A stretch of 50,779 nt of DNA from Nemertoderma westbladi. Its lineage: Eukaryota; Animalia; Xenacoelomorpha. This document shows positions 556-50,169 of this stretch, piece after piece. The stretch covers positions 1 through 50,779 of the forward strand of contig JAUCBJ010003498.1 of NCBI GenBank assembly GCA_032718475.1. Reading direction: 5' to 3'. The translations under genes were made by a program, and so were the position numbers. Below the pieces are notes generated by a model. The model worked only from the letters and a program-made list of their open reading frames with translations. It had not been told where the DNA came from and made no database searches. How positions within the stretch are numbered: position 1 is the stretch's first letter; every line of letters begins with the position of its first letter.

Positions 556-1583
556 TTTTTTCTCGGGAAAAAAAAGTTCCAGGGTAAAAATATTTGTTCT
601 AGAACATTATTTTTTCAATAACAAATAGCTGACATTTTTCTTGAACATTTAAAGAATTATTATCTAAAATTAATTTGTGTTCATTTCGATCGTTCATTTG
701 ATTAAATTGCCGACTTGTTTTATTTTATTTGAACAAAATATTATATTTGTTCCAGTTACCATATAAAAACTAAAAAAAAAATATTTTAAAAATGCTGCAA
801 AATTTCAAAAAACGCTCACACATCGGGCTATGCTAAAGTGCCCCTTCAATATTACCGCTGTTTTATTGCTGACAACTGTTCTATTCCTATTAGCTATAAA
901 AATAACATAATTTTATAAGTATTTAAATTTGTCATTAATAGAAATTGTTTCCAACTTTATAACATAATTTATTACCAGGTTATTTAGTTATTTTATGAGT
1001 TATTTACCCGAGGGACATGTTATAGACCCGAGGCGAAGCCGAGGGTTTATAACTGGCCCGAGAGCAGATGTAGGTGAGAAATGGAGCCGATTGCACCGTA
1101 ACATTTTTTTATTTTGGTTTTTATATGGTTGGTGAAGCACAGCGCTGTTTGTAGGGTGACACGAGGTATTCATACTTATTTGACATTGTAACGGGTTTGT
1201 AGTCGTAAAGTATGTGAAAGAGTCATTTTGAGTGAGACGGCCGGCTTTTCTAATCTTAACTATTTTTGTTTCTACCATATTTACTTCCATTCCGTTTCAA
1301 ATGTTGTAACTTATTAAGGTATAAATGTTCTATTTCATGGCAGTGATTACAAGAAGGTGTATTCTGAAAATTTTCCAAATTTTTTTACAATAATATAATG
1401 GATAGCTATTACTTTACTAAATCAGTAACAGTATTAGTTTGTTAAGACTCCGCCAACTTCGTGGCTCCCGTGACGACATTAATTAATCAAACGATATTAG
1501 ATACTACTGATTAATGTAGTAAGGAATGTTGATTGGCTATTCGAATAGCTATTCTGATAGGCTGTGCCAGATGGTGTCATAGT

Positions 1584-3278
1584 AATTTATTTAATAATTA
1601 TTTTACTAATGTTGCCTCTAATTTAGTTAAGAAATTACCGTTATCAAGTAATAAATATAGTATAGGGTCCGAAACTCTAAATAATTTTTATTTAGAAAAG
1701 TTACAAAATTCAGAAAAGTTATTTTTAAAACCCGTTTCTGAGGATTTCGTTTTTAAAAATCTACTTAGCCTATCAGCCTCAAAAAGTACCGGTCTAGATC
1801 TAATACCTGCCCGTTTTCTTAAGGATGGTGCTGAAGTACTTAAAGTGCCTATTACTTTTATTATTAATTACTCTATCGTAGATAATGTAGTACCAGACGA
1901 ACTGAAATTAGCTAAGGTTGTTCCTCTGTATAAAAAGAATAGTAAAGTAGAACCCTGTAATTACAGACCTGTTAGTATCTTAAGTATTGTATCTAAAATT
2001 CTAGTACGTTCTGTTTTTCTACAGCTGGAAGCACATCTTAGTAGGCTAAATCTGATCTATGAACTTCAGTCCGGTTTTCGTAAATCATATTCTACAGACA
2101 CCTGCCTTATTAACTTAACTGATACAATTAGATGTAATAACGCAAAGGGTTTATATACTGGTATGGTAATGTTGGACCTACAAAAGGCTTTCGATACTGT
2201 AGATCACGAAATTCTGCTTGGTAAGTTAGGCCTGATGGGTGTAGGTTCTATAGACTGGTTCAAGTCCTACCTGTCAGACAGAGGTCAAACTGTAGTCATT
2301 AACAAATCGCAGTCTACTGTACAAGAGATTACCTGTGGTGTACCGCAAGGTAGTATATTAGGTCCTCTGCTTTTTGTATGCTATGTAAATGATATGATAA
2401 GTAGTATAGATCCCGATTTTAAACTCATTTTATATGCCGACGACAGTGCTCTTATTTTCTCTCATAAAGATCCTATCCATATTTCCCAAAAGTTAAGTGC
2501 AGTTCTAGAATCCTGTAATGAGTGGTTGGTTGATAATAAGCTATCCATTCACTACGGTAAAACTGAAAGTATTTTGTTTGGTTCCATAAGAAAGTTAAAG
2601 AAGGTAACTAAGTTTGAAGTCACTAGTAATGGACATAAGATTGAAAATAAAAAGGAAGTTAAATATTTAGGCGCCACATTGGATAACTGCTTATCAGGAG
2701 AAAGTACAGTGAAAAATATTTTCTCGAAAGTTAACAGTAGGCTTAGGTTTCTATACAGAAATAAAAATAGTTTAAACACCGACTCCCGCAAGTTACTTTG
2801 CTCTTCTTTAATACAGTGTCACATGGACTATGCGTGCTCTTCTTGGTATGAAGGCTTAACCAAACAGCTTAAATGTAAATTACAAGTAGCTCAGAATAAA
2901 GTAGTACGATTTATTAACTCCAGATGACTTTTCTGAATCTGGACTACTTAACTTAGATAGTAGAGTTAAGCAGCTATACGCCTTAACCATGTGCATAAAG
3001 TGTATAATGGTAAATGTCCCAATTACCTAAAACAAAAATTCAACAGAGTACGCGATACACACTCTTACAGTACCAGAGCTAGTGCTTCAAACTTCTACCT
3101 CCCGAATTGTAAATCCTTTGAATCTGATACTTTCTTTTTTAACGGCATAAAAAATTGGAACGCTCTGCCTAATGAAATTAAAAACCTAAATAATCAACAT
3201 TCTTTTAAATCTGCAGTTAAATCTCATCTCCGTGTGCAATGTAAAAATAGGTACAATAGTCCTACAGTAAGTTATTAG
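1584..3278 (+). pseudogene. LINE ORF2 reverse transcriptase remnant, broken at ~2927
   Basis: ORFs 1533..2927 and 2991..3278 are consecutive parts of one ORF2, separated by a stop and a deletion. Homology begins at about NLFNNYF. Confidence 0.85.
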
Positions 3279-4425: not shown

Positions 4426-4829
4426 CGGGGGTGAGACCTGGACACTGACTAAATCACTTGAACAACGATTTCATGGTTGCTACACAAGACTACTGGGGGC
4501 AGCCCTAAACATCACCTGTAGACAACACATACAAACGCCGTGCTTTATGGTACAAAACCACCTGTATCAACCACCCTCCGTGAACGCAGATTAAGATTCA
4601 GTGGGCACCGCTGGCGAAGTAAAGACGAGGTCATACCAGATCTACTTTTCTGGCGACCAACTCATGGAAAGCGTAGTCGTGTCCGACCGGCCATAACATA
4701 TATAGATCAGCTTGAAAGGGATACTGAACTTGGGAGAAACGAAATTGCGACAAACTACGGAGAATCGGGAAGCCTGGAAGGATCTCATTTCCACTGTCCG
4801 AGTTCGCTCGACCTAGTAGTAGTAATAGT
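4426..4829 (+). mobile_element. 3' end fragment of an RTE-type LINE
   Basis: Translates (with a frameshift) to GETWTLTKSLEQRFHGCYTRLL...LYG..PPVSTTLRERRLRFSGH...LLFWRPTHGKRSR.RP, then a (TAG)n tail. Confidence 0.8.
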
Positions 4830-5013
4830 ATATAAACTAAGTTATTGTTTAAAAAAACCTAGTTATATTAATTGCGTAGATATATAAAATTAAATATTGT
4901 AAACACTTTGACAACTTGTTGGTCAGTTTATTGACAAAAGTAGCTTGATAAATTACGTGCGTACAGCATAAATCTATTAATAACAACATAAACTACAAAG
5001 CTTATTTTATGTT

Positions 5014-7225
5014 ATGGCGGAATCAAACTCATACAAAATTACAGGAGATGGTAAACAATTATGTCTGATAATAAATATTACAGATTATCGCGGTACTAAA
5101 TACTCTGACAGAGGAGAAGGGTCATCACATGATGTAAAAATCATTAAGGAAATATTTGGAGGCAAGTTGGGTTGTGAGATAGTGGAATATATAGATGAGA
5201 AAGGTGAAGTGAAGAAGAACATAACAGATGATGAGTTGATACAATTCCTAACTGAATTTAGTAATCAGAAACAATTAAATGACATTAAGTGTCTTTTTGT
5301 ATTCCTTATGAGTCATGGAATTGAGGGTGAGCTTGTTTGTTCCAACGAAGTAACAGTACCTATAAAAAAAATTGTGGAACTATTCTCAACGGAATGTTTG
5401 GCACTAAGTGGTCCGGTTCCAAAACCTCGGATATTCTTCGTAGAAGCTTGTCAATCAAACCCTTATCCAGACTTCGATTTAAATTTCTCTGATCGTATAT
5501 TTGAACATACAGCTGTAGCAATCGGTTGCAGTCCAGGTGAGACGTTACCAATGTACAAAGACCAGGGGTCGACTTTCATACATTATGTTTGTAAAGTAGT
5601 TAACAATATCCTAAATAAAAAAACAGCTGGGGATGATGTTAAAGTGGATTTATTACCAGTGTTGAGGAATTATAACATTGTGCATCGAGGTACAGATGAA
5701 AATTCTATTATATCACATCCACAAATATATGACTATTTAGCAAAATCAGTACACCTTTTAGAATTTGTTCCACAAATTCCACCTGATTTTCCGCGCTGGT
5801 TAATTCCAAAGGTTCCCAATTATCACATTCCCCGCCCCGACATGGTAGAAAAGGTTAGAAAGGGTCTGAATGAGCTGAAAGGTCAACCAGGTTGGGTAGT
5901 TATATCGGGAATGGCTGCCATAGGGAAAACAACTTTGGCAATCGATTCAGTAAACGATGAAGTTATTATAAAATCGTTTCCCGATGGTATAATTTGGCAG
6001 AATATTGGACCTTTGGGAGTCAGTCCTGGTGGTGAAAATAGTCTCCTGCAGAAAATGAAAGAAATCTGTTTAATGTTAGATGAATCAAGTTCTCAATTAG
6101 TCGGCCAGTTGTTTAGTATTAAGAGCTGCAAAAATGCATTGAATAAAATAATTCACAAGTTTCCCTCAAAACGTATATTGATAGTTTTAGATGATGTTTG
6201 GGATGAATTTGTAACAGAAGCTTTCGATATAAATTGCCTAATTATGCTGACAACACGTGATAAGATGTGTATTTATTCTGATTGCTCTACCAATGTATGT
6301 GAAATTGAAGTTAAGGTTGGATTAAGTGAACTTCAATGTTCTGAGTTACTTGCAAAATGGCTTGGAGATGGAGAAATTTTAAAGATGACGGAAGTTAAAC
6401 ATTTAATTTCTAAATGCCATGGCTCACCTTTGGCAGTAAACATAGTAGGGGCCATAAAGAAATACAATCCTCAAGTAACATGGAGCAATATTGAAGATCG
6501 TCTATGTCAAATAGATGGGAGAAAAATGTCAAAGTTGAAATATAAAGATTCAATCAATTCAACAATCGAACTCAGTATTGAGTATCTATCAGAGGCAGAT
6601 AGAGACCGTTATATTAATCTTGCTCTTTTTTCACAAGTTGGCTGTCAACAATTTCAAAAAGAAATTGTTGCATTCTTCTGGGATTTAGATATTTTCGATA
6701 CAATATTTACATTGAATAATCTGGTAAATAAATCTCTTCTATCCTATAATTCAGGTTTTGAACTTTGGTCTTTACATCCATTGTTGAATGAATTTATTAA
6801 CGAGAAGCAAGAAGATGCATTTAAATATCATCGGCTAATAGTTTATAAGTTCAATGAATTGAAATTAGCGGAGGAGGGACAGAAACTTTCCAACTATAAG
6901 TATGAATTCCTTGCTAATCATATGGCGAAAGCAACTCTCTGGGAAGAAAGACACCAACTACTAACTAACATTCTTTGGATTAAATCAAAGATTAAGTTCA
7001 GTGGACCTGCGAATCTTATTGCTGATTACGAATTGGCTGACCAGAAACTTTCGGAAGACCAAAAAGCAGAACAGGAAATATTCCGATCGACAATCCGTCG
7101 ACTATGTGCGAACCTCACTGGGACAGAAAGGTGCGACATAATTCAAGTCGGATTGATGGCTCCAAAAACATCGGGATTTTACAAAAAGTCACGGGAATTC
7201 GCAGTTCAAGAGTTATGCAATGATG
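5014..7225 (+). CDS. APAF1-like: Exon 1 of caspase-NB-ARC-WD40 fusion gene: caspase (peptidase C14) domain aa ~5-250, then Apaf-1-type NB-ARC and helical domains
   Basis: Caspase: CLIIN, R33, MSHG (H101), KPRIFFVEAC (C146), PG....GSTFI, PQ. NB-ARC: GWVVISGMAAIGKT (Walker A), LIVLDDVWD (Walker B), LTTRD, CHGSPLAV, LVNKSLL, LHP, LWIKSKIKFSGPANLI, DIIQVGL, all colinear with Apaf-1 as I recall it. Donor G|GTAAGT at 7225/7226. Confidence 0.92.
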
Positions 7226-7686
7226 GTAAGTGTGTAAACTAAATATGTAACACACTGTATAACCTACATAAAAATGTATAGAAGTAAGTGAGAGACATTG
7301 AGCTGAATTATAAAATTCGCACAATCTATCCCAGTAACATACTATGGAATAATACGTAGTTAATGGATAAGGTGTAAGTTACCCATTACATGAGTGAGTT
7401 TCCACTCAACAGTCTTTCTAATAGTTATTTAATTAGTTTTAATGACGAAATGCATATCATTTAACAATAATTAAATAATTAACAATATACAACAAGCGCG
7501 CCGACCGTCCAATAGTTGCATAAACTTATATAACAGATAAACACAAATACATAATAATACCCAACATTATTGATTAATGTAGATGGTATAATATTAATTA
7601 ATGTAGCACAGAATATACTGTACATAAGTTTGTAAAATCTAAGTTTACGTAATTTCTGAGCGACTCAGGGCAATGTTACAGGGGAT

Positions 7687-10600
7687 TGTTAACTGAATCT
7701 GGAGATTGTGCGACATGAGACGTAGTCTGTTAACTCAATCCGGAGATTGTGCGACATGATACGGAGTCTGTTAACTCAATCCGGAGATTGTGCGACATGA
7801 TACGGAGTCTGTTAACTCAATCCGGAGATTGTGCGACATGATAAGGAGTCTGTTAACTCAATCTGGAGATTGTGCGACATGAGACGGAGTCTGTTAACTC
7901 AATCCAGAGATTGTGCGACATGAGACGGAGTCTGTTAACTCAATCCGGAGATTGTGCGACATGAGTCGTCGTCTGTTAACTCAATTCGGAGATTGTGCGA
8001 CATGAGACGTAGTCTGTTAACTCAATCCGGAGATTGTGCGACATGAGACGTAGTCTGTTAACTCAATCCGGAGATTGTGCGACATGAGACGTAGTCTGTT
8101 AACTCAATCCGGAGATTGTGCGACATGATACGGAGTCTTTTAACTCAATCCGGAGATTGTGCGACATGATACGTAGTCTGTTAACTCAATCCGGAGATTG
8201 TGCAGCATGATACGGAGTCTGTTAACACATTCCAGAGATTGTGCGACATGAGAAGGAGTCTGTTAACTCAATCCGGAGATTGTGCGACATGATACGGAGT
8301 CTTTTAACACAATCCAGAGATTGTGCGACATGAGAAGGAGTCTGTTAACTCAATCCGGAGATTGTGCAGCATGATACGGAGTCTGTTTACTCAATCCGGA
8401 GATTGTGCGACATGATACGGAGTCTGTTAACTCAATCCGGAGATTGTGCGACATCAGGCGTAGTCTGTTAACTCAATTCGGAGATTGTGCAGCATGATAC
8501 GGAGTCTGTTAACTCAATCCGGAGATTGTGCGACATGAGAAGGAGTCTGTTAACTCAATCCGGAGATTGTGCGACATGTGACGTAGTCTGTCAACTCAAT
8601 CCGGAGATTGTGCGACATGAGACGTAGTCTGTTAACTCAATCCGGAGATTGTGCGGCATGAGACGGAGTCTGTTAACTCAATCCAGAGATTGTGCGACAT
8701 GAGAAGGAGTCTGTTAACTCAATCCAGAGAATGTGCGACATGAGACGGAGTCTGTTAACTCATTCCAGAGTTTGTGCGACATGAGACGGAGACTGTTAAC
8801 TCAATCCAGAGATTGTGCGACATGAGAAGGAGTCTGTTAACTCAATCAAGAGATTGTTCGACATGAGACGGAGTCTGTTAACTCAATCCAGAGATTGTGC
8901 GACATGAAACGGAGTCTGTTAATTCAATCCAGAGATTGTGCGACATGATACGGAGTCTGTTAACTCAATACGGAGATTGTGCGACATGAGACGGAGTCTG
9001 TTAAATCAATCCAGAGATTGTGCGACATGAGACGGAGTCTGTTAAATCAATCCAGAGATTGTGCGACATGAGACGGACTCCGTTAACTCAATCCGGAGAT
9101 TGTGCGACATGAGACGGAGTCTGTTAACTCAATACGGAGATTGTGCGACATGAGACGGAGTATGTTAACTCAATCCGGAGATTGTGCGACATGAGACGGA
9201 GTCTGTTAACTCAATCCAGAGATTGTGCGACTTGAGACGGAGTCTGTTAACTCAATCCAGAGATTGTGCGACATGAAACGGAGTCTGTTAACTCAATACG
9301 TATATATATTGTGCGACATGAGACGGAGTCTGTTAACTCAATGCGGAGATTGTGCGACATGAGACGGAGTCTGTTAACTCAATCCGGAGATTGTGCGACA
9401 TGAGACGGGGTCTGTTAACTCAATCCGGAGATTGTGCGACATGAGACGGAGTCTGTTAACTTAATCCGGAGATTGTGCGACTGTGCGACATGAGAAGGAG
9501 TCTGTTAACTCAATACGGAGATTGTGCGACATGAGATGTAGTCTGTTAACTCAATCCGGAGATTGTGCGACATGAGAAGGAGTCTGTTAACTCAATCAAG
9601 AGATTGTTCGACATGAGACGGAGTCTGTTAACTCAATCCAGAGATTGTGCGACATGAAACGGAGTCTGTTAATTCAATCCAGAGATTGTGCGACATGATA
9701 CGGAGTCTGTTAACTCAATACGGAGATTGTGCGCCATGAGACGGAGTCTGTTAAATCAATCCAGAGATTGTGCGACATGAGACGGACTCCGTTAACTCAA
9801 TCCGGAGATTGTGCGACATGAGACGGAGTCTGTTAACTCAATACGGAGATTGTGCGACATGAGACGGAGTATGTTAACTCAATCCGGAGATTGTGCGACA
9901 TGAGACGGAGTCTGTTAACTCAATCCAGAGATTGTGCGACTTGAGACGGAGACTGTTAACTCAATCCAGAGATTGTGCGACATGAGACGGAGTCTGTTAA
10001 ATCAATCCAGAGATTGTGCGACATGAGACGGAGTCTGTTAAATCAATCCAGAGATTGTGCGACATGAGACGGACTCCGTTAACTCAATCCGGAGATTGTG
10101 CGACATGAGACGGAGTCTGTTAACTCAATACGGAGATTGTGCGACATGAGACGGAGTATGTTAACTCAATCCGGAGATTGTGCGACATGAGACGGAGTCT
10201 GTTAACTCAATCCAGAGATTGTGCGACTTGAGACGGAGACTGTTAACTCAATCCAGAGATTGTGCGACATGAAACGGAGTCTGTTAACTCAATACGTATA
10301 TATATTGTGCGACATGAGACGGAGTCTGTTAACTCAATGCGGAGATTGTGCGACATGAGACGGAGTCTGTTAACTCAATCCGGAGATTGTGCGACATGAG
10401 ACGGGGTCTGTTAACTCAATCCGGAGATTGTGCGACATGAGACGGAGTCTGTTAACTCAATCCAGAGATTGTGCGACTTGAGACGGAGTCTGTTAACTCA
10501 ATCCAGAGATTGTGCGACATGAAACGGAGTCTGTTAACTCAATACGTATATTGTGCGACATGAGACGGAGTCTGTTAACTCAATGCGGAGATTGTGCGAC

Positions 10601-12412
10601 ATGAGACGGAGTCTGTTAACTCAATCGGGAGATTGTGCGACATGAGACGGGGTCTGTTAACTCAATCCGGAGATTGTGCGACATGAGACGGAGTCTGTTA
10701 ACTCAATCCGGAGATTGTGCGACATGAGACGGAGTCTGTTAACTCAATCCGGAGATTGTGCGACATGAGGCGGAGTCTGTTAACTCAATCCGGAGATTGT
10801 GCGACATGATACGGCGTCTGTTAACTCAAAACGGAGATTGTGCGACATGAGACGGAGTCTGTTAACTCAATCCGGAGATTGTGCGACATTAGACGGAGTC
10901 TGTTAACTCAATCCGGCGATTGTGCGACATGAGACGGAGTCTGTTAACTCAAACCGGAGATTGTGCGACATGAGACGGGGTCTGTTAACTCAATCCGGAG
11001 ATTGTGCGACATGAGACGGAGTCTGTTAACGCAATCCGGAGATTGTGCGACATGAGACGGAGTCTGTTAACTCAATTCGGAGGTTGTGCAAGATGAGACG
11101 GAGTCTGTTAACTACATCCGGAGATTGTGCGAGATGAGACGGAGTCTGTTAACTCAATCCGGAGATTGTGCGAGGTGAGACGGAGTCTGTTAACTCAATC
11201 CGGAGATTGTGCGACATGAAACGGAGACTGTTAACTCAATCCGGAGATTGTTCGACATGAGACGGAGACTGTTAACTCAATCCGGAGATTGTGCGACATG
11301 AGACGGAGTCTGTTAACTACATCCGGAGATTGTGCGAGATGAGACGGAGTCTGTTAACTCAATCCGGAGATTGTGCGAGGTGAGACGGAGTCTGTTAACT
11401 CAATCCGGAGATCGTGCGACATGAGACGGAGTCTGTTAACTCAATCCGGAGATTGTGCGACATGAGACGGAGTCTGTTAACTCAATCCAGAGATTGTGCG
11501 ACTTGAGACGGAGTCTGTTAACTCAATCCAGAGATTGTGCGACATGAGACGGAGTCTGTTAACTCAATACGGAGATTGTGCGACATGAGACGGAGTATGT
11601 TAACTCAATCCGGAGATTGTGCGACATGAGACGGAGTCTGTTAACTCAATCCAGAGATTGTGCGACTTGAGACGGAGACTGTTAACTCAATCCAGAGATT
11701 GTGCGACATGAAACGGAGTCTGTTAACTCAATACGTATATATATTGTGCGACATGAGACGGAGTCTGTTAACTCAATGCGGAGATTGTGCGACATGAGAC
11801 GGAGTCTGTTAACTCAATCCGGAGATTGTGCGACATGAGACGGGGTCTGTTAACTCAATCCGGAGATTGTGCGACATGAGACGGAGTCTGTTAACTCAAT
11901 CCAGAGATTGTGCGACTTGAGACGGAGTCTGTTAACTCAATCCAGAGATTGTGCGACATGATCCGGAGTCTGTTAACTCAATCCGGAGATTGTGCGACAT
12001 GAGACGGAGTCTGTTAACTCAATCCGGAGATTGTGCGACATGAGACGGAGTCTGTTAACTCAATCCGGAGATTGTGCGACATGAGACGGAAACTGTTAAC
12101 TCAATCCGGAGATTGTGCGACATGAGACGGAGTTTGTTAACTCAATACAGAGATTGTGCGACATGAGACGGAGTCTGTTAACTCAATCCAGGAGATTGTG
12201 CGACATGAATCGGAGTCTGTTAACTCAATCCGGAGATTGTGCGACATGAGATGCAGTCTGTTACCTCAATCCGGAGATTGTGCGACATGATCCGGAGTCT
12301 GTTAACTCAATCCGGAGATTGTGCGACATGAGACGGAGACTGTTAACTCAATCCGGAGATTGTGCGACATGAGACGGAGACTGTTAACTCAATCCGGAGA
12401 TTGTGCGACATG
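7687..12412. repeat. 41-bp tandem satellite, about 115 units, consensus GAGATTGTGCGACATGAGACGGAGTCTGTTAACTCAATCCG
   Basis: Directly visible; period 41 (7702 to 7743); units differ only by point variants and rare small indels. Confidence 0.98.
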
Positions 12413-12420
12413 TATGTTAG

Positions 12421-12655
12421 TCCCACCTTCTTGGTGTAGTGGTTCATATCTCTCCGGAGGTCGTGGTTTTGATCCCCGCATGGAGGCCGGCGAGAATGTT
12501 TTAAAGCCAGGGCGCAAATCTGTCTTGCAAACTTAAATGGAAGTTAAATGAGTACTAGAGTTTCCTCAGGGGGACCGCACTGGAAATAGTAATCATACGT
12601 TAACGTTGTGCGTATTCCCTGGCCTAACGGCTGAATAAGTACCTCTAGTAGTAAG
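12421..12655 (+). mobile_element. tRNA-derived SINE abutting the satellite
   Basis: A box TGGTGTAGTGG, degenerate B box GGTTTTGATCCC, central taaatgagtac motif, short tagtag tail. Confidence 0.6.
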
Positions 12656-13544
12656 TTTCGGCGCTGATTCCGTAAATGGCAAGATATTTCGAAATTTTTG
12701 TGTGTTTTATGATCATTTTTTGGTGTCAAATGTGGTGCTGCACCAAAATTACAAATTTTTCAATTTTGGGTGAAAATTACAAAAGTTTCCATAACTCGAG
12801 AATGAAACAACGTAAAGTGGAATAAGCGAAATATCGATAACAAATTCACTAAATTTAGTCTATGAAATAAGTTAGTAGAAAATTTAATTTCATACGAATA
12901 AAAAATGCACTTTACATTTATTTGAAAGGCTATTTATTACTCAGTACTGAATAACTGAATCGAAAAAATAATCTTCTTAACTGTTTCTCCTGTCACAACA
13001 TGTACCCCCAGGCAGCCTTTGCAACAATACGCCTCTCACCTGCTCCCTGCAAAAATACCGCAATACTGCAAATAAATTAATTTTAGTGAGCCATAAAATC
13101 TTTTATTATTGTGTTAGGGCGAATGAGTGGTTTCAAATTATTATGGTGTGATATTATGGTTTTGTTCAGAAATGGAAAAAATAATTTATTTTATCCATCC
13201 ATTTAATTTAATTCATTATTAGGCCCTATAACTTTTTGTTGGGCACAGCTTTAAATTTATATTTTAATATTGAATTATTTATTTTCAAATTAATTATTAA
13301 TTAAATTATTAATTTATTTTTTTGTATTTTTCATGTATGAAAGTGAGGTATGCGCGTTTTGTTGACCCCACTACTCCTAAAATATAATGATCTTTTATAA
13401 AGGCTGGACTTTGAATTTTAGTTCTTAGTTTCTTTCTGTGGGTCGGCGTCATGGCCTACTTTATAAGAGGCCATGACAATGCACGGGCAAATAGCTGACT
13501 TGGAGGCCACTTTGTTTATGGGTGTAAGTCGGAATATATGGTAG

Positions 13545-14901
13545 ATACAAACTTCTAACCTTTACCTACCCCCACTAAGTCGATGCTGAGGATCTCAAAT
13601 ATCATATTTAAAATTGTTTATCTCGAGACCCTGTTGCTATGGCAACATCTAATCAGTGGATACCGGTTGACCGGTATTTGTCTGTCTGTATAGCATGTAG
13701 CCTATATCTGTATATGCCTACTGGCCTAGTTTCTAGTGGGGCGGCCTACTTCATGTGTACTTCTGTATTCTGTTTTCTTCCAAATGTATAGCATATAGTA
13801 CTTATCCTTTATCGGTGTCCGTGACCACTTATGACTTAATACTCCTTGCTTAATACATGTTGTTGTTTGTGATACCGGTACCTCGTTTTATTATGTTTGA
13901 CAGTTGATGTGGTAGGCCTAGCCTATTAATTCGGTAATTCAGTAATTACCGTCTGAGATCTGACCGTGACCGACAGATTGAACAGTTGAAGCAGTAATCA
14001 TCGCCTCGGAGTCCTTACTTACCTGCATTCAGTATTTACATGCGGTTTTCTAGTTGCATTGCATGCGATGCCTAGAAAGTGCTGCGTTCCACTTTGTCGC
14101 TCCAACTATGCAAATGAATCACCGGTAACCGTTTATCGAGTTCCTAGTGACAAGCCGTACCATTCTCAATGGATGAGCGTTCTATTGAAAGTTATAACAG
14201 ATGTTTATCTAAACATTCAATCTTCTAATGGTAATGTTATTGCAATTCTTGGTGACAATATGTCTGTCAATCGAAGCTTTTTTGCTTTATTTGAAACTGA
14301 GGTAGGAAAGCCTTGGTTAACCACTCAGGGAACATTTCTTATTCACAAAGCTGTATACCCGAAACCTATTGAGAGACAAGACGTTTGTTTAATGCTTCGA
14401 GTATTTTGTGACGAAATTGTAACAGCTTTACGTACTCATACGAAATCAAACAAAACTGACAAAGACACGGCAGATTTCATAGAAGATTTTGTGAAGGCAT
14501 TCAATATATTAAATGTGAAGTCCAAGAACGAGGCTAGGCCTATACATTTAAATGATGAATGGCGGAGTCCCATATCAGATCCTGGTGATAAACGGTTGGA
14601 TATACTGCTCGATATAGCTTCTAATGTTGAGAAAATGAGGTGTGTAAATGGTAAAACTCGCTATCAGACATTTACAACAGATACAGCTAGCGCCATTGTG
14701 CATACGTTAACGTTTCGTGGTTTTGTAGATTTGGTGAAATCGTTACGCGATTACGACTCACATAAATTGGTACTGGTAATTGGTATCCACTGATTAGATG
14801 TTGCCATAGCAGCAGGGCCTCGAGATAAACAATTTTAAATATGATATTTGAGATCCTCAGCATCGACTTAGTGGGGGTAGGTAAAGGTTAGAAGTTTGTA
14901 T
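13545..14901 (+). mobile_element. Internally deleted P-superfamily (THAP/Galileo-like) DNA transposon with long inverted repeats
   Basis: 120-bp inverted repeats at 13545..13664 and 14782..14901 (2 mismatches seen) enclose a THAP-transposase remnant. The true left end may extend to CATGGCCTAC at ~13450. Confidence 0.85.
14068..14793 (+). pseudogene. THAP / P-element transposase with in-frame internal deletions
   Basis: MPRKCCVPLC...P...W (first half of THAP), ILGDNMSVN (catalytic Asp region), PIERQDV...VF, TADFI...FNILN. Confidence 0.8.
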
Positions 14902-14902
14902 T

Positions 14903-15270
14903 AAAATCATATAAATCCACTTTTCTTAGTCGTGGAAAAATCTTATAAAACTACTTTTATTTACCGTGCAAGTTTTAATAAACATATAAAACCACTTTTC
15001 CAGGTCTATTAAATATCATATAAAACCATTTTTCCAGGTCTATTAAATATCATATAAAGCCATTTTTCCAGGTCTATTAAATATCATATAAAACCATTTT
15101 TCCAGGTCTGTTAAATATTAATTACTACAGTAATATAAAACCACTTCTCTCAAGTCGAGTAAAAATCATATAAAACCATAAATCATTTTAATCATATTAT
15201 TATCATATATTAAATCTGCACACATCATTAGTGGTTTTTATATGATTTTATGACTAAGAAAATTGGTTTT
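14903..15270. repeat. 34-bp tandem repeat (4 copies) within a short element with inverted subterminal motifs
   Basis: Unit atataaaaccatttttccaggtctattaaatatc, period 34; reverse-complement motifs at 15231..15270. Confidence 0.75.
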
Positions 15271-15668
15271 ATTGGGCCTGATTCAGCCACCGCAGCTTAT
15301 GTTTTCTCCATAAATTTATTGTCATCTTAACTTTTTTAATGCATCGTGTAAAATTTATTTTTTCTATTTTGGTAGTATCAGATGATATTAAAACACCGAG
15401 GACATTGAAGGGTTAATCCGGCTCTAACCATTTTAATTTACGATGGGGGCATAGTTTTACTCTAGAATTCTTTGTTTTGCCGATACGGATAACTTCGGTT
15501 TTGGATTCATTTAGTTCGAGGCCTAAGACCAGAGAAAATTGTTATAATAAAACTAGTAGGAATTCTAGAACATCAGCGTAATCAATTATAAAAAACTTTG
15601 TATCATCGGCGTACTGTGATACTTTATTTACCAGATCGAATTGTTATTTCCAGGTCTATTTTTTTACC

Positions 15669-15745
15669 TGGCCGCTAGCTGAATGGTTAGAGCGTCAAAC
15701 TTCCAACCCGGAGGTCACCAGTTCGATCCCATCTGGATGTCATAG
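15669..15745 (+). mobile_element. tRNA-derived SINE head
   Basis: A box TAGCTGAATGG, B box AGTTCGATCCC. Confidence 0.55.
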
Positions 15746-16278
15746 CCGACTTTGCAAAAGCAGTGCCAACAAAAAGTTATAATATAATCTGTTGCAATTT
15801 TAGCACAGAAAATACTGAGATGGGTACAAGAAAGGGACGAAAGAGATGTTTTGGCGTTTGCTCTGTTAGATTGCCCATTAAACTTTAGGAAAAGTCACGA
15901 AATCTCTGCTTTTCCAACGACCCTGACTCAAAGATACAGATGTATTACAAAGAAATTTCAAAAATGCACCCCCCCAGGGCAAGCTACTACAGAATTACTT
16001 AAGCTGCTACAGAATTACTTATACTGTCGCACTGCACACCGGTAAATGTACCGGTTGCGCGGTAGCTGTAATGTGGGAATGTAGGTTTATAGCATGGATA
16101 TTAATTAATATTGGATAGCAGATTATTCGTACCGGTATTATAAATATCCCTCTCTATTAGAAGTAGATCAATATTAATATTTGTAAATTGTAATATTGTA
16201 AATAATATTTTATTATTAATCAATTATAATTTATTATAATCATCTGATTAGTTTGTGTTGTTATTTTATTATTTGCAG

Positions 16279-18548
16279 AAAATAAACTTTATTTCGATCT
16301 CAGCAACTCAATGAATAGAACAAGAGATGAAACAGATGAAACCTTATCGATAAAGTTACTGAAGGATTACGAGACCCGGTTGACGCATGGAATTCAGTTA
16401 TCTGCTGATGGAAAAACGATTCTAGTTTACGTCAATAATAAGTTAATGATTTGCGATGCTGCCAGTGGGAAGAAGATTATTACAGAAGATAAAATTAATA
16501 TCAAACCATCGCTATATCTATATGATGCAAAATTATCGGCTGATGGAAGAAGAATATGTTATCGAACTTTAGATGGTTTTATTCATATTCGGGATTCTAC
16601 TGATGGAGAATTAATATTCGATCATTTTGATTCCCATTCGGTAATAAAGGAGGAAGATTTAATCAATAAAACATCACCGATACTCACAAACAGTATAAAC
16701 TTCCATCCTAAGGATTCAAATATATTCTGTTTCTCGTCCCACAACGGGACTATCAGTTGTATCAATACGGAGGTCACCGACTCCACTATAACTTGGGAGG
16801 CCCACTCCCCTTCCCAGATAGGAGTTTCATTCTCACCAACAGCTAAACATCTAATAACCTACTCCACTCACCCAACTCCAACTCCGGGAGTTAAACTTTG
16901 GGATTTTATTAATTTATCTTCAATACAAAAGCCAATTAAAGTCTTTGAGTTCAGTAAATTTGGTATAGAATGTCTAGATTGGGTTGCGGACGATATAATA
17001 ATTATAGGTTATAACGTTAATGTTGGGTTTTGGGGGTTCCGTGTAGATTGTTGGAACTTATTGGATGGGAAGCCGATATGGGGGAGGAGATTTACCAACA
17101 AGTTATACAACATTCATCTCCAAGGAATTAAATACCTCGGAGCGGTGGATCGCGTTCTTATAATAACCGGATATACATCGGGGCGATCGGGTGCGGAACT
17201 ACTGGATGGTAAAACCGGAGAACTAACCCACCGAATGGTAACCGGTACAATCGGACCGGTTAAGTTGACATCCAGCCGCGTGGATGTAACTCAGTCTGGT
17301 AAGTTTATGTGTTACTGTAACATTGGGGCCGATACTGTAACACTAAACATTAACAGCGTCGGTACAGAATCGTCCAGCGGTGGTAAACTAACTGGATACG
17401 GCGGGGTTCGAGTTCTAGATACGGAACCGATTACCATAGCAGCGAGTACGCGGGACTCCCTCCATATAATGGATATGGAAGGGAATATTAAACTAAATAA
17501 AGAGGTAGAGAGTCCGATATGGTCGTTAACTGGAATAGAAAACCAACCGGTTTTCGCTTACGGGTGTGTCAACGGAATTATTTGTGTTTATTATGGAAAT
17601 AAATTTATTAATTTACCAACAACATCTAGTGAACGTGTAGAGAAATTAGTTTTTGTTGCTCCATCGAACTATTTAGTTAGTAAAGCGGCTGATAAACTCA
17701 GTGTGTGGAGTTATAAAGAGTCGGCTGAGTTACTCCGAGAATATTATCGATATGGAAGATTATCGATATGGGAATTATATCGTTGCTTGGTAGGGAAACC
17801 GGGGCACTTAATTAGAGAATTACAACCCAATCCGGGGTCTAAGATTAGGTGGTTAGTAGCATTAAACTGTAACAATACAGTAGCAACTCTAGATGAGAGC
17901 GGTAAATTAATTCTTACCGATATATTAACTGGGAAACATTCGGTTGTTGGTGAATTCCCAAAGGGTTGTGGGTTGGTAGTTTTACCTGATTCTAGAATTA
18001 TTCTTGTATCTGGGTTAAGTAACAATAAGTTACTCAGTTGGTTAGTAAAAGTAACTGACGACGGATTCCCAGTTACTGAGTTAGAAAGTTTCAGTTTAAC
18101 CACATTCGCTTTCTCTCCCAACAGCTCCTACATAGCCGTAGTAAAGGGTTCAGTTGTATTAGTTTATTCTAAAGACGGAATTCAGTTTCCTATAAATAAT
18201 GAAAGTTTAAATATAAAGGAATTAGATTGGATTAGCGAAGCGACTAATTGGGTTAATAAACTCTCTATTATCACTAAGTTTAATTACAAACCTACGGCTG
18301 TAATAAACACTGTAGAGGGGGTCGGAAAGGTGGACTTTGTAAACAAAGATTGTGATACGATTATTATTAGAGGCGATTTAAATATTTCGATATTTTCAGT
18401 TAAAGGTGAATTTTTACAAAGAATTCCTATAAGAATTGTTCCTACTTCTTCTACTATCAGCTGTTCTTTAAACTCATTGATGTTTGTAGTTGTTGGTGAG
18501 GATCTCAATATTTATATGTTTAAACAATTAAATAGGTTAATTCAATAA
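16279..18548 (+). CDS. APAF1-like: Exon 2 of caspase-NB-ARC-WD40 fusion gene: divergent WD40/beta-propeller sensor region (~755 aa)
   Basis: Uninterrupted 2.27-kb ORF with WD40-type blades (LSADGKTI, LSADGRRI...HIRD, FHPKD, WEAH...VSFSP...VKLWD, VDCWN, LSVWS, FAFSPNSSYIA); in frame with the acceptor at 16278; stop TAA at 18546..18548. Confidence 0.88.
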
Positions 18549-24142: not shown

Positions 24143-24352
24143 CCTAACTGCATTGTCTATTAATGTTGTGCTAACTGCAAACCTGAACAGTATTACTATA
24201 CACCTAACTGCAAGGTCTAATTAATGTTGTGCTAACTGCAAACCCGAACAGTATTATTATACACCTAACTGCATGGTCAAATTAATGTTGTGCTAATTGC
24301 AAACCCGAACAGTATTACTATACACCTGACTGCATGGTTTATTCATGTTGTA
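24143..24352. repeat. 60-61-bp tandem repeat, ~3.5 copies
   Basis: cct(a/g)actgca...atgttg units start at 24143, 24203, 24264, 24325. Confidence 0.9.
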
Positions 24353-24464
24353 GGCCTACTAACTAAGTGTTTAAACAGGATCAAACATTTCAGCATTTCT
24401 GTAATTCGTCTCGTGATCCTTATTTTGGCATTCGGCCAATTCGGCATTCGTGGGACCAGGGATA

Positions 24465-25541
24465 CCCGAAGGATAATTGAAGAGTTATCAAAAAAGAAAG
24501 ATAGGCATCTGGCTGTTATCTTTGTTGACTTCTTCAAGGCCTTTGATTCAGTCTCTCTCTCACGTATGTTCAGCATACTTTCATTATATGGGATTCCTGA
24601 TGAAATTATTGCAGCAATCAGATCAGTATACGATGGTTCGACAACATTTGTCTCTACTGTTGACGGTGACAGAGAACCATTTGAAGTGTAATGGGATGTC
24701 CTCCAGGGAGACACACTTGCACCATTCTTGTTCATAATTGTGGTTGACTATGTTCTACGCACGTCCTTAGATCATCATAATGATGATGGGGTGATGATAA
24801 CTCCACCTACTGGCTCCAGAAGTCGAGGAAATCCTGCCAAGTACCTAACTGATCTAGACTTTGCTGATGACTTAGGAGTACTCTCAGAATCACTAGAGGG
24901 AGCCCAACGGCTCCTCAGCTCATTAGAACATGCTGCTTCTAGTGTTGGTCTTTTTATGAACTCCAGAAAGACCAAAATTTTGACAGTTAACTTTGAAAGT
25001 CCTCAGCAAGTCTCTGATCGGATGAGCATAAGCTCAAAGGATGGTATGCTTGAGCATGTGGACGACTTCTGTTACCTGGGATCATGGATCCGGAAGTCAG
25101 ATGAGGGACCTTCGAATACGTAAGGGAAAGCATTGGGCAGCTTTGAATATATGCTTTGCAGAATTTGGAAGTCACCGAGAATTAATCGGAAACTTAAGGT
25201 CCGATTATTTAGAGCAGCAGTAGTTCCAGCATCTCTGGATGGCACATTCACAAGAATGCTACGCCGGGTACATTGTGTCAAGTACAATGCACACATCTCC
25301 AACCAGACACTATATAACATTGGAGGTGTCTCATTGGTTCCCCCAAGCTTGACACTAGAACAAAATCGCCTCCGCTTTGCAGGACATTGCTTTCACCGTG
25401 AGGACCAGCCAGTGCATAAACTTATACTTTGGCAGCCTCATGGACTGAATAAGCATGGTGGACAGCCCATGACTTTCTTGAGACGCATCTTAAAGGAAAC
25501 TGGCCTTGAAGAAGCGGGTGATCTAGCAAATGTCATGGGTG
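24465..25541 (+). mobile_element. 5'-truncated, degenerate RTE-type LINE interrupted by a hAT element (continues at 30746)
   Basis: RRIIEE, FVDFFKAFDSV, QGDTLAPFLF, LDFADD, DFCYLGS, RLRFAGH; stops and frameshifts present. Confidence 0.88.
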
Positions 25542-25713
25542 CAGGGTTGATAAAAATCATGATTTTTTTTAAAAATCTGATTTTTTTTATTTAAATCAGA
25601 TTTTATAGAATTATATTCCCTAAATGCCGTGGATTTTCAAAATTTTATTTTTATTCGAATTAACTTTGTAAAGATTGCTTTGAGTTCTCATTCGTATTGG
25701 TTCTATCATTTGT

Positions 25714-36665: not shown

Positions 36666-36864
36666 TTAATAGTAGTTGGATTCACAGTCAATCACAGTTA
36701 TTCCTTACAACTCGCTGCAGAATATAGTTTTTAAACAGGAGCTAATAAACCAACAGGTTGATGTCACTTTATAGAACTGTAGATATCCTCTAGTAGTGAG
36801 TGTAGCTGTAGATGTTCAACCAGTTGTGCTTGTGATTTAGCCGAAGATGTTCAACCAGTAGTAA

Positions 36865-37540
36865 TGCAATGCAGCATGCCGATCCTAGTAGTAGTAGTAG
36901 TATGCTTGAGCATGTGGATGACTTCTGTTACCTGGGATCATGGATCCGGAAGTCAGGTGAGGACCTTCGAATACGTAAGGGAAAGGCATGGGCAGCCTTG
37001 AATAGGCTTTCCAGGATTTGGAAGTCACCGAGAATTAATCGGAAACTTAAGGTCCGGTTATTTAGAGCAGCAGTAGTTCCAGTACTCTTCTATGGGAGTC
37101 CATGCTGGGCTCTAACTGCTGAGGACTCTGGATGGCACATTCACAAGAATGCTACGCCGGGTTCATTGTGTCAAGTTCAATGCACACATCTCCAACCAGA
37201 CACTATATAACATTGGAGGTGTCTCATTGGTGCCCCCAAGCTTGACACTAGAACAAAATCGCCTCCCCTTTGCAGGACATTGCTTTCGCCGTGAGGACCA
37301 GCCAGTGCATAATCTTGTACTTTGGCAGCCTCATGGAGTGAATAAGCATGGTGGACAGCCCATGACTTTCTTGAGACGCATCTTAAAGGACACTGGCCTT
37401 GAAGATGCGGATGATCTAGCAAATGTCATGGGTGATAGGGAGTTGTGGTGGTGCAATTTTGTCGATAGGCCGGCACAGCATTCTTAAAAATGCAGCTGCA
37501 ATGCAGCATGCCGATCCTAGTAGTAGTAGTAGTAGTAGTA
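36865..37540 (+). mobile_element. Two tandem 5'-truncated RTE-type LINE copies (a ~36-bp tail-only copy, then a ~640-bp copy)
   Basis: tgcaatgcagcatgccgatcc(TAG)n occurs at 36865 and ~37497; the body is highly similar to 25047..25541 plus 30746..30831. Confidence 0.88.
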
Positions 37541-39686: not shown

Positions 39687-40400
39687 CGGACCAAATACCA
39701 GGAGTATGTATATTATACTACCGATAGTTGGTCCGCTCCTATAGGCTTCCATTACAAATTTTACATTGAAAAGCATTACGCCGGAACAAATACCTGTAGT
39801 ACAGTATATATAGGCAATCACTTGTTTCTGTAATTAAAAATCTCATAGTGCGGACCAAATACCAGGAGTATGATATACTACCGATAGTTGGTCCGCTCCT
39901 ATAGGCTTCCATTACAAATTTTACATTGAAAAGCATTAGGCCGGACCAAATACCAGTAGTATATATATAGGCAATCACTTATTACTAAATCATTTAGCAA
40001 CAGTGTTGTGTTTGTTCTGGGGGAAGTTCCCCCGGGAAAAGGGTTTCTTTGGGGGCCAAATCAGAAAAAATGGGGCTTGGAATGTTTTGGGGTTGGTGTT
40101 TAAAAATCCAATAGCTCGGGTATTTAATTATCCCATAGTGCGGACCAAATACCAGGAGTATGATATACTACCGATAGTTGGTCCGCTCCTATAGGCTTCC
40201 ATTACAAATTTTACATTGAAAAGCATTACGCCGGAACAAATACCAGTAGTATATATATAGGCAATCACTTATTTCTAAATCATTCAGCAACAGTATTGTG
40301 TTTGTTCTGGGGGAAGTTCCCCTGGGAAAAGGGTTTCTTTGGGGGCCACATCAGAAAAAATGGGGCTTGGAATGTTTTGGGGTTGCTGTTTAAAAATCCA
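39687..40400. repeat. Local irregular tandem repeats
   Basis: cggaccaaataccaggagtatg...ggtccgctcctataggcttccattacaaattttac recurs at ~39687, 39851, 40141; the gtgtttgttctgggggaagttccc block recurs at ~40008 and ~40298. Confidence 0.85.
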
Positions 40401-43400
40401 GTATCTATTACTTTTTTATTGTCGGACTCGGAAGCAGTAGTTTAGCCTTTTGATAGCATCCCAATTCCGCTAGGTAAGAAAATGTTAGGTAGAGTACATT
40501 ATATTGTCTTATAATCTATGCTTCCGATTCTTTTAATTAAGCCGCCCCTTTCACACCTGATCTAACAACAAGTTAGGACGGCAGCATACAGGTATACTGT
40601 ATACAGAGGTCATCACGCTTGTTCATGATTAGTCATGAACAATTACATACTGTAGACGGCCCTCCCATCAATGAAGGGTATATTTTATTACCATACAGCC
40701 ATATGGCAGTATGGTCAAATACAGAAATATACATACGAATAATCTTTAATGAGTCAGCAGATTTACACATCACCTAACATGTTAGATCGGGTACAGTACA
40801 GCAAACCAGCTGGCACACAAACATTTAATGTTGGACGTCGCATCAGGACGTCGCATCAATATCTGTTTAATGATTACCAACCTATAATTATTCTTTGGGT
40901 TTATTGTTTAGCCATCAAAACTATCGTCCCTTTTCCATAAATGGTGGGCTACCGCTATCGTATATATTGTTATATTCCAAATTTGAACCAAAGTTACACG
41001 ACTAGATCTATTCTTTGATTCATCACATTTAAGCATTTATACATGACCTTGAAACATGATAGGTCGGGTACAGTACTAGTACATCAGAACAGCTGGTACA
41101 TGCACATGTTATTTCGGGTATATTAGACGGGATGGAGGGGGGTTCAGCGGATCGGCTCAAACTAAGATTTATGATGAGTTGCAACTGGCCACTACAGTAC
41201 AACCACATGGTCACTACTGTTAATTAACACTTCATCTAATCTGCTAAAGCTAATAACGTTAGGTATGGTACAGTACACATATGTCATAGGGATGGCTTAC
41301 TAATATTTATATTACACAGCTCCTCACATCAATGTAGGGTATATTATATTAACACATACATGTTATGTTGGGAAAGGGGGGGGGGGGGGGGGGGGGGGGG
41401 TAATTCATCATACATCCCCAATGTTTTGGGGTTGGTGTTTAAAAATCCAATAGCTCGGGTATTTAATTATCCCATAGTGCGGACCAAATACCAGGAGTAT
41501 GATATACTACCGATAGTTGGTCCGCTCCTATAGGCTTCCATTACAAATTTTACATTGAAAAGCATTACGCCGGAACAAATACCAGTAGTATATATATAGG
41601 CAATCACTTATTTCTAAATCATTCAGCAACAGTATTGTGTTTGTTCTGGGGGAAGTTCCCCTGGGAAAAGGGTTTCTTTGGGGGCCACATCAGAAAAAAT
41701 GGGGCTTGGAATGTTTTGGGGTTGCTGTTTAAAAATCCAGTATCTATTACTTTTTTATTGTCGGACTCGGAAGCAGTAGTTTAGCCTTTTGATAGCATCC
41801 CAATTCCGCTAGGTAAGAAAATGTTAGGTAGAGTACATTATATTGTCTTATAATCTATGCTTCCGATTCTTTTAATTAAGCCGCCCCTTTCACACCTGAT
41901 CTAACAACAAGTTAGGACGGCAGCATACAGGTATACTGTATACAGAGGTCATCACGCTTGTTCATGATTAGTCATGAACAATTACATACTGTAGACGGCC
42001 CTCCCATCAATGAAGGGTATATTTTATTACCATACAGCCATATGGCAGTATGGTCAAATACAGAAATATACATACGAATAATCTTTAATGAGTCAGCAGA
42101 TTTACACATCACCTAACATGTTAGATCGGGTACAGTACAGCAAACCAGCTGGCACACAAACATTTAATGTTGGACGTCGCATCAGGACGTCGCATCAATA
42201 TCTGTTTAATGATTACCAACCTATAATTATTCTTTGGGTTTATTGTTTAGCCATCAAAACTATCGTCCCTTTTCCATAAATGGTGGGCTACCGCTATCGT
42301 ATATATTGTTATATTCCAAATTTGAACCAAAGTTACACGACTAGATCTATTCTTTGATTCATCACATTTAAGCATTTATACATGACCTTGAAACATGATA
42401 GGTCGGGTACAGTACTAGTACATCAGAACAGCTGGTACATGCACATGTTATTTCGGGTATATTAGACGGGATGGAGGGGGGTTCAGCGGATCGGCTCAAA
42501 CTAAGATTTATGATGAGTTGCAACTGGCCACTACAGTACAACCACATGGTCACTACTGTTAATTAACACTTCATCTAATCTGCTAAAGCTAATAACGTTA
42601 GGTATGGTACAGTACACATATGTCATAGGGATGGCTTACTAATATTTATATTACACAGCTCCTCACATCAATGTAGGGTATATTATATTAACACATACAT
42701 GTTATGTTGGGAAAGGGGGGGGGGGGGGGGGGGGGGGGGGGGTAATTCATCATACATCATCTGATTTCTTCACAGGTTATCGTTAGGTCTTAGGTCCGGT
42801 ACAGTAAAGCTGTAGAATTTTAAAACAATAGCTGATTTACATTTATAGTTGTAATTTATAAATACATCTATCTATCTGTCTATAGTCTGATAGTGGGCAA
42901 AGAACATATACAGTATATTTCTGTATTTAATTGTACATGATTATATTATACAAAAAGCTATTATGTCGATGTACTGTTAATATTACATAATTAAAATCTG
43001 CAATTTGGGTACCTCGGTCCGCGGTCCAGAAGGCAGTATAATGCCGAATTCGGAAGCTTAACTTGATTGATGGTGTAAGCCTACTGTATTATTCGACTGA
43101 TCGTAATATATAATCTCTGACAAATATTATTCACTTTCGGGAAATATTAACAGTTCCTTTAGGACGTGGCGCTCTAAATATGTAAACAGAGTTATGACTT
43201 AAACTAGACACAACGAAATGGCTATAGATTCATGTATATGGCGCATTCTTTAGGAGATGCTTTGTTATCAGTTACAATCATATACAATGCTGCACAATAC
43301 TGCACACTAATCTGCCGACCTTCACTAAATTTAGTCACGTATAAAGAGAGCAACATACAATTTATGTCGGGCCTATGAAATAGCATTAGATTCACTTCAA

Positions 43401-49900: not shown

Positions 49901-50169
49901 AAATCCGGTTCTAAAGCAATTGGTGCTTTAATTTGAAGATTACGAGGGGTTGAGTCAGCCTGATGAACTACAGGTTGATGTGGTTGACCAAGTAATTGTT
50001 GAAATTGATGGGCATTTTGGGCTTGGGATTGTGCTAAGGAATCAGCCAAATCGCGTTGTGATTTAACTAAAGCATGTAGAAGAGCTGAGGTGGGATCAGG
50101 ATTACCACGACCAGCCAACTGTTCTCTTAAAACCTCCAGTTCGGTTTCGAGTTCAGCTTTAGTAGGCAT
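46903..50169 (-). CDS. Ty3/Gypsy gag-pol polyprotein (Mag-like), truncated before integrase
   Basis: Two CCHC knuckles (CYGCGKTDHKRADC, CSYCGKEGHFANVC), protease PDTGA, RT (WRLCVD, LDAKDGYWQ, NPMG, VVDD), RNase H (TDAS, ELE, IDH, DALSR). Homology ends at FWNVRHQLS (~46930). Confidence 0.93.
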   Translation of the reverse strand: MPTKAELETELEVLREQLAGRGNPDPTSALLHALVKSQRDLADSLAQSQAQNAHQFQQLLGQPHQPVVHQADSTPRNLQIKAPIALEPDFSLAKFETWKSVWADYYSAFQMDRMARDRQICIFRSYLSIGMRSTLEQVIDIPPDTHDNPLTVQVLIDCIQSYFRGKRNIALDCVQFDNRKQRQSENFDSYLVAIKDLARDADLCRHCFDRRLTTRIMSGISCEDTRSKLLALTPFPSLEDAVNLCRSEESAQAGVQDLKNPSINQASRQSRFHNKKPYNSRRNNSSKSNSRNNSSTTGPIVCYGCGKTDHKRADCPARNKDCSYCGKEGHFANVCRSKQNNSNSSSKPKTKPISRITLNLVGSHNRQAPKVFLNFCHIATGHLFGSLKATPDTGAEATVAGLDFLQALSIDKENLLPPDHDDLSAANGSLLSCIGLLHTTISYGEYSTDELICICEEVNGILLAWYTCQNLGIISSSYPEPVAEIQSVASSNSSNMSPIGIKNSIPTTSFKVDFHLSDEPSPSEWDTVKQKLIKAYSDVFDQDDKLRPMNGPPMTISLKDDAQPYAIHTARQLPLAIRDWAKARLEKMVEQGIICPVLDNEPTDWVHPLVVVPKPTGGWRLCVDLTKLNKHVKRPYHPSVTPREAVNSISPSDCFFSSLDAKDGYWQIPLDESSQNLTTFISPWGRFKFLRNPMGLTSAQDVFCLRGDIALQGLDGIAKVVDDILIHSSDSHSHLAHIIAVLDRCREHQISLKAAKFKLATPEVCFAGYIISSNGIQANPSKLNAIADFPVPTNISELRSFLGLVNQLGEFTSSISEKAGPLRDLLKVKNVFCWSEPQETAFQAVKKALVSPPILAPYDPLLPTMLQTDASRLKGLGFSLLQKHDSFWKLIQCGSRFITDTESRYAMIELELLAVVWATRKCKVYLMGLPSFELVIDHKPLLPILNNYTLDMIDNPRIQRLKEKLTLYFFNTTWRKGSEHSIPDALSRAPVSDPTPEDILCDTDVNDHVSAVIRHVSTSIVVSDAPSHLKDSYIESIRSSAKDDISYMALVDAVISGFPSTSTQCSVHIRPFWNVRHQLSKRLPNVFI

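Follow-up and report, generated by a model that had tools for sequence, protein, structure and literature searches.

Apaf-1 orthologues in which a caspase-like domain replaces the CARD, and which also carry WD40 repeats, have been described in bacteria (PMC13581612), and in fungi the CHAT-NLRs, equipped with CHAT or S8 proteases, control gasdermins (PMC12881547). In invertebrates, the N-terminus of Apaf-1-like proteins may be a double CARD, a death domain, a DED or a TIR domain, or it may be lost (PMC2246300, PMC10959488); an earlier note on the DNA studied here had mentioned the death and TIR swaps, and they are indeed described. Amphioxus has TNFR-caspase and LRR-caspase hybrids, i.e. receptor-caspase fusions without NB-ARC in which the QACxG motif is kept (PMC2575513). 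Here we describe a gene of Nemertoderma westbladi (assembly GCA_032718475.1, contig JAUCBJ010003498.1, positions 1–50,779 of the forward strand) that joins a caspase domain to an Apaf-1-type STAND switch. The whole stretch of 50,779 nucleotides (nt) that was analyzed is called the window, and all coordinates refer to it. The encoded protein has the order caspase, NB-ARC, helical domains and beta-propellers, a His/Cys catalytic dyad, the nucleotide-binding motifs, and changed residues in the S1 pocket. The reading that we favor, with slightly better than even confidence, is that an animal caspase and a CARD-less Apaf-1-type switch of animal origin, joined in frame, form a single-chain sensor-protease whose cut-site preference is predicted to be relaxed or directed away from aspartate.

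The window contains two long open reading frames (ORFs) on the + strand, 4984–7242, with an ATG at 5014, and 16248–18548. Since the caspase, NB-ARC and APAF-1 helical domains share one open frame (5014–7225), the fusion of the caspase with the STAND part is read directly in uninterrupted sequence and is independent of the intron. The chance of a 742-codon open frame at the local composition is approximately 1e-26. It is the attachment of the propellers that depends on the predicted intron, which is in phase 1, begins with a perfect GTAAGT donor at 7226, and ends at 16278 with a T-rich tract and a CAG acceptor. The earlier note had joined the two ORFs in this way into 1493 amino acids (aa), with H101, C146 and K305 at key positions. 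The coding sequence joined from the ATG at 5014 has this length, no internal stops, and the three residues where they had been placed. When the 40 open in-frame GT-AG pairs were scored on the full length against an Apaf-1 profile, junction 7225/16279 came out on top with 381.9, the runner-up reaching 374.5; an earlier ranking, biased by unequal windows, had put it seventh. The intron, searched in six frames, showed no additional exon resembling Apaf-1 or a caspase. The gene is real and intact-looking. For comparison of the protease domain, a scan for the active-site pattern in approximately 10 of the 64 parts of the metagenome collection yielded 115 caspase loci, 35 of them with the whole catalytic domain. 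The features of the gene are the following.

5014–7225, + strand: coding exon 1, intron-free, aa 1–737 plus one base; caspase, short linker, NB-ARC, winged-helix, and helical domain 2
5014–5757, + strand: caspase catalytic domain with large and small subunit regions, aa 1–248, no prodomain (by Pfam, sequence similarity, and model)
5110–5115, + strand: R33-G34; the column of the first S1 Arg is Gly, with Arg one residue earlier (ambiguous)
5314–5316, + strand: His101 of the catalytic dyad, with Gly102 next after it (both residues conserved in all 35 aligned caspases)
5443–5451, + strand: E144-A-C146; catalytic Cys kept, S1 Gln changed to Glu
5545–5553, + strand: L178-P179-M180 of the substrate-binding loop, where caspases have Ser or Ala, an aromatic residue, and Arg
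5758–5802, + strand: proline-rich linker of about 15 aa from the last caspase strand to the nucleotide-binding domain
5803–6582, + strand: Apaf-1-type NB-ARC domain with Walker A K305, Walker B D393/D394, sensor-1 R415, and the GxP motif
6583–7224, + strand: winged-helix domain (His588 kept) and APAF-1 helical domain
7226–16278, + strand: predicted 9053-nt phase-1 GT-AG intron (sequence-based)
16279–18548, + strand: coding exon 2, aa 738–1493; divergent Apaf-1-type beta-propeller region with the Apaf-1 C-terminal signature at its end

The domain order given in the earlier note was recovered by Pfam in exon 1 and by the Apaf-1 profile in exon 2. In exon 1, Pfam matched NB-ARC at aa 276–523 (93.3 bits) and APAF1_C at aa 606–732 (74.6 bits), both above the cut-off. 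Walker A, Walker B, sensor-1, the winged-helix His and the APAF-1 helical domain are all present; the G302 column is Ala in this protein and Gly in 21 of 21 relatives. The best match of aa 264–736 in the PDB was Apaf-1 (E 1e-57). A search of 1.84 billion representatives (50% clusters) gave 4005 matches to the switch, and the best 150 of these were examined. The top ten were all from animals (lamprey, zebrafish, hemichordate, nemertean, amphioxus, jellyfish, sea urchin, horseshoe crab, hagfish, and sponge), at approximately 30% identity, and seven of them belonged to clusters named Apaf-1 or Apaf-1-like, in agreement with the assignment of the STAND part to the Apaf-1 type in the earlier note. 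The Apaf-1 profile was built from 21 of the 150 best relatives, and the whole protein aligned to positions 114–1233 of its 1236.

In exon 2, all beta-propeller matches in Pfam were below the threshold, and the second half of the exon had no Pfam match at all. Against the Apaf-1 profile, the exon scored 50 bits (E 2e-17) and added 59 bits to the score of the protein; 100 shuffled versions added at most 6. The start of exon 2 aligned with the motif found after helical domain 2 in Apaf-1, and the last 70 residues matched the Apaf-1 C-terminus. A single-sequence model of exon 2 had a predicted local distance difference test score (pLDDT) of 35.5 and sets no blade count for the propellers. A short internal repeat, L-S-x-W...L-x-R-E, lies at 17690–17835 (aa ~1209–1255) and may represent a blade duplicated in part; at 17739–17771, a tandem duplication of 16 bp leaves the frame open.

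The earlier note had also given the protein neither a CARD nor a caspase prodomain, which holds within the window. An in-frame stop is found at 4981, 33 bases before the ATG, and similarity to caspase-3/6/7 begins at residue 4. CARD was absent from the Pfam matches, and a CARD profile made from 17 Apaf-1 N-termini matched nothing in the window, the 5 kb upstream included; the same profile detected the CARDs in three control caspase ORFs. The possibility exists that the gene model is incomplete or different, with an upstream CARD or DED exon beyond the window, or with exon 1 expressed without exon 2. Just 5 kb of upstream sequence is visible, weak AG sites are present at 5000 and 5044, and exon 1 could extend to the stop at 7240–7242. 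However, the nearby AG sites are pyrimidine-poor (seven or fewer pyrimidines per 14 bases), the match of residues 4–9 to caspase-3/6/7 argues against splicing into 5044, and both the in-frame stop and the blank CARD profile speak for the model used here. The caspase–STAND fusion would be kept under either variant. We consider a different gene structure very improbable. Among the metagenome loci, an 846-aa open frame (L040:887-3424) has three CARD matches ahead of its caspase domain.

To place the switch, trees of the STAND part were built from the 60 of 133 rows that passed a coverage filter, and a second tree from 41 of those 60 rows. The STAND part forms a long branch, and its unusual composition was flagged. 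A branch with a support of 100 separates it from 20 rows of the other type (two of the nine looked up were named bacteria, the rest being without taxon), and it falls outside the 21 animal-type rows, of which 16 were animal-named and five assigned by position, with an SH-aLRT value (from the Shimodaira–Hasegawa approximate likelihood-ratio test) of 89. In approximately unbiased (AU) tests with groups picked after inspection of the tree, two prokaryote-type placements were disfavored (p 0.049 and 0.018), and placement with two arthropod sequences was not rejected (p 0.51). The animal-type profile scored 382 bits, compared with 261 bits for the other profile. An animal origin of the switch is likely rather than certain.

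No protein with the same architecture was found in the protein searches. The caspase domain, looked for with the caspase sequence from the window and with a caspase profile in 154 proteins plus named cluster members, was present in none of the best 150 of the 4005 relatives. A word-index protein search gave four weak matches to longer proteins, all lacking a caspase domain, and no match for the caspase-domain query. The plasmid collection gave no match, and the caspase motif pattern was found in 0 viral contigs. The 115 metagenome caspase loci matched the Apaf-1 profile in the CARD region only, with no NB-ARC. An Atlas search with aa 1–560 gave leads that were all below 0.9, mostly bacterial protease-STAND clusters.

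The lack of a relative of this architecture, the long branch outside the animal-type sequences and the existence of the design in bacteria could mean that the locus is non-functional, be it a pseudogene, an assembly chimera or a fusion that arose recently by chance, or that it was transferred whole from bacteria. Yet 1493 codons are open and the key motifs are kept, while the intron has meanwhile become filled with repeats. The G+C content at third codon positions is alike in the two parts (0.27 in caspase and 0.30 in STAND), and neither the profile scores nor the AU tests favor a prokaryote-type switch. The closest sequence matches of the caspase part are animal caspases. We thus regard this explanation as extremely improbable.

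A check proposed in the earlier note, a C14 profile match within aa 1–250, gave Peptidase_C14 of Pfam at aa 15–198 in exon 1 with 75.5 bits against a cut-off of 21.4. In the Atlas, 29 of the 30 matches for the caspase domain were Peptidase_C14 clusters, the top three being from animals, at 0.90. H101, G102 and C146 are retained even though the domain is just 18–26% identical to the 35 aligned caspases, suggesting selection on catalysis. The small-subunit half is poor by sequence: aa 139–259 alone gave no caspase match, and as a separate profile domain this half scored approximately 0 bits. The caspase fold, its last strand included, was predicted with a pLDDT of 87.6. Compared with known structures, the model gave Z-scores of 25–26.5 to caspase-8/-3/-9 over residues 1–251 (26.5 to caspase-8 over residues 4–250), 18.8 to MALT1, and at most 17 to metacaspases. 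The protease is thus modeled with the complete fold of animal-type caspases.

Caspase-7 binds the P1 Asp via Arg87, Gln184 and Arg233, three positions that set P1 specificity, and MALT1 holds acids at similar places, i.e. Asp365, Asp462 and Glu500 (PMC4357240). In the window protein, the Arg-Gln-Arg set is not found, the positions being G34 (with R33 adjacent), E144 and M180. The G34 column is Arg in 34 of the 35 aligned caspases, and the E144 column is Gln in all 35; among the 115 motif-bearing metagenome ORFs, found with a pattern that allowed both residues, 112 have Gln and three have Glu. The M180 column, aligned to the caspase-7 motif, is Arg in 32 of 35, and the loop has Ser or Ala in 35 of 35. 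Two of the three aspartate-binding residues are thus replaced and the third is shifted or absent, while the catalytic His and Cys are kept. Of the S1 acids of paracaspases, E144 fits the position of Asp462, M180 is unlike Glu500, and D40 does not vary among ordinary caspases either. By analogy with MALT1, P1 could plausibly be a basic or a neutral residue.

Because the S1 pocket is remodeled, ordinary aspartate-cutting activity is doubtful. The protein might still be a canonical apoptosome in a single chain, in which an initiator caspase specific for aspartate switches on effector caspases. The animal caspase fold and the dyad are compatible with this, R33 could act as the first S1 Arg, and Glu at the Gln position also occurs in three of the 115 other caspase ORFs. 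However, the second S1 Arg is Met, all three residues being needed in caspase-7 (PMC4357240), and the two of the three Glu-type ORFs that reach the loop (L081 and L109) both have Arg there by eye. We find such a canonical role decidedly improbable. The earlier note's idea of a self-contained death or immune receptor stands in part: the architecture is supported, whereas E144, M180 and G34 make an aspartate-cutting death protease unlikely. The metagenome fragments with Glu before the catalytic Cys are L109:115-546, L079:322-588 and L081:3-632; L109 has E-A-C-Q as in the window protein, yet the loop Arg is kept.

The same residues are compatible with a further explanation, namely that the protein is as described here and its caspase domain is weak or dead. 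It would then serve as an adaptor or decoy, restraining or recruiting free caspase by heterodimerization in the manner of c-FLIP, or as bait for caspase inhibitors made by pathogens. The loop motif and two S1 residues are replaced, the small-subunit half has little sequence similarity to caspases, and inactive regulatory caspase domains exist in animals, e.g. coral caspase-X and c-FLIP (PMC4715348). On the other hand, caspase-X is a pseudo-caspase without the His and Cys, and H101, G102 and C146 are all kept in the window protein. Moreover, enzymes of clan CD shift their specificity at exactly these positions (PMC4357240). We consider a weak or dead domain unlikely, although it is the explanation that should be taken most seriously besides an active protease.

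In an active sensor-protease, which we favor, the resting state would be ADP-bound and closed via His588, as the biochemistry of Apaf-1 suggests, where ADP is held by His438 when the protein is closed (PMC7583971). A ligand binding to the divergent propellers would bring about nucleotide exchange and the assembly of a ring. The caspase domains, on tethers of about 15 residues, would thereby reach a high local concentration and either dimerize or dock on the hub, and the clustered caspases would cleave a substrate of their own, probably at a residue other than Asp. The pocket, having gained an acid and lost one Arg and possibly the second, would cease to favor Asp, and the output would therefore more likely be a specialized immune or death branch than canonical apoptosis. 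Dimerization activates initiator caspases and MALT1 (PMC4357240), and in the apoptosome both homodimer formation and contact with the NOD of Apaf-1 activate caspase-9 (PMC5123071). By analogy, self-activation through oligomerization is the most likely mechanism.

Several observations weigh against this reading. No orthologue was found among the protein collections, metagenome contigs and prokaryote genome contigs. The fold model leans towards its alignment, which consisted of 35 canonical caspases. The residues L178, P179 and M180, as well as S148, H165 and S234, differ at conserved columns, which fits lost activity equally well. The propellers are approximately 19% identical to Apaf-1. Finally, tethered proteases in a ring require tight autoinhibition, while His588 is followed by Pro589 (6775–6780) in place of the Asp found in 18 of 21 Apaf-1-type relatives. 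In plant NLRs, a change at the Asp after the His can loosen autoinhibition; the Pro589 substitution may alter it in the window protein.

A protein of this kind would show animals arming the Apaf-1 switch directly with an enzyme, like bacteria and fungi, and might be a source of a caspase-fold protease from an animal that prefers new cut sites. It is still debated whether caspase activation in the apoptosome comes about through proximity-driven homodimers or through docking on the hub (PMC5123071), and a protein with one caspase tethered per Apaf-1 subunit and no CARD would test these modes of activation at a fixed 1:1 stoichiometry.

Two repeat features lie within the intron, neither assigned to a strand.

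7687–12412, no strand: 41-bp satellite, ~115 copies
13545–14901, no strand: element with 120-nt terminal inverted repeats (98% matching)

The latter element, a transposon remnant, contains a decayed THAP-like ORF (13990–14793), whose THAP match is below the cut-off (E 0.003). Two tRNA-like stretches seen by eye, at ~12420–12490 and ~15670–15740, may be short interspersed elements (partial repeat). A single 2.2-kb intron-free exon holds the caspase and the whole STAND part, and the fusion may have arisen by retroposition. Elsewhere in the window, we noted a tRNA-Asn(GTT)-like gene at 6–77, reverse-transcriptase fragments of long interspersed elements on the + strand (1533–3278, 4522–4887, 24269–25594, and 36836–37487), and a gag-pol-like frame of a long-terminal-repeat retrotransposon (1097 aa, 46903–50196, − strand). 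At 39708–45456, near-identical blocks are repeated at spacings of 290, 1339 and 2442 bases, with long G runs at 41376, 42715 and 45157; they are either an assembly repeat or the product of a recent tandem duplication.

When the window protein is compared with animal Apaf-1 (PDB 1Z6T and 5JUY; lamprey XP_078459825; zebrafish NP_571683), the two share NB-ARC, winged-helix, helical domain 2 and propellers and are collinear to the C-terminus. Unlike Apaf-1, the window protein has a caspase domain in the place of the CARD, propellers that are roughly 100 aa longer, and Pro for Asp after the winged-helix His. With the animal caspases of family C14A (caspase-3/7/8/9), it shares the full fold, the large and small subunit regions and the His-Gly/Cys dyad; it differs from them in the absence of a prodomain, the C-terminal fusion to a STAND ATPase, and the altered S1 pocket.

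We found no animal caspase-NB-ARC-WD40 protein in the literature, which was covered mostly as open-access texts without figures, and the available parts of PMC13760059 and PMC4715348 do not mention a caspase–Apaf-1 fusion. The CARD-less invertebrate Apaf-1-like proteins resemble the window protein in having a swapped N-terminal domain, and differ in that a caspase domain is not mentioned for them in the accessible text (PMC2246300, PMC10959488); the supplement of PMC10959488 holds names and accessions, with no domain terms found in it. The amphioxus hybrids and the fungal CHAT-NLRs are alike in that receptor and caspase-clan protease form a single chain, so that adaptors are bypassed.

The closest in design are the bacterial caspase-like/Apaf-1/WD40 proteins, which have the same order of protease, STAND and propeller sensor and no CARD. 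They differ in that both halves of the window protein look animal-derived and its gene has a predicted spliceosomal intron, and the resemblance is probably convergent. The novelty suggested in the earlier note must be narrowed accordingly: no animal example was found, but the same design has been described in bacteria (PMC13581612), and what is new is the animal-built version. It is conceivable, though we would put it at somewhat less than even, that an animal lineage rebuilt a bacterial-style protease-STAND-propeller receptor from its own caspase and Apaf-1 and rewired the caspase off aspartate, possibly with expansion into a small gene family. The product would then be an animal receptor for immunity or death that needs no adaptor, activates itself and has as its effector a caspase fold no longer directed at Asp.

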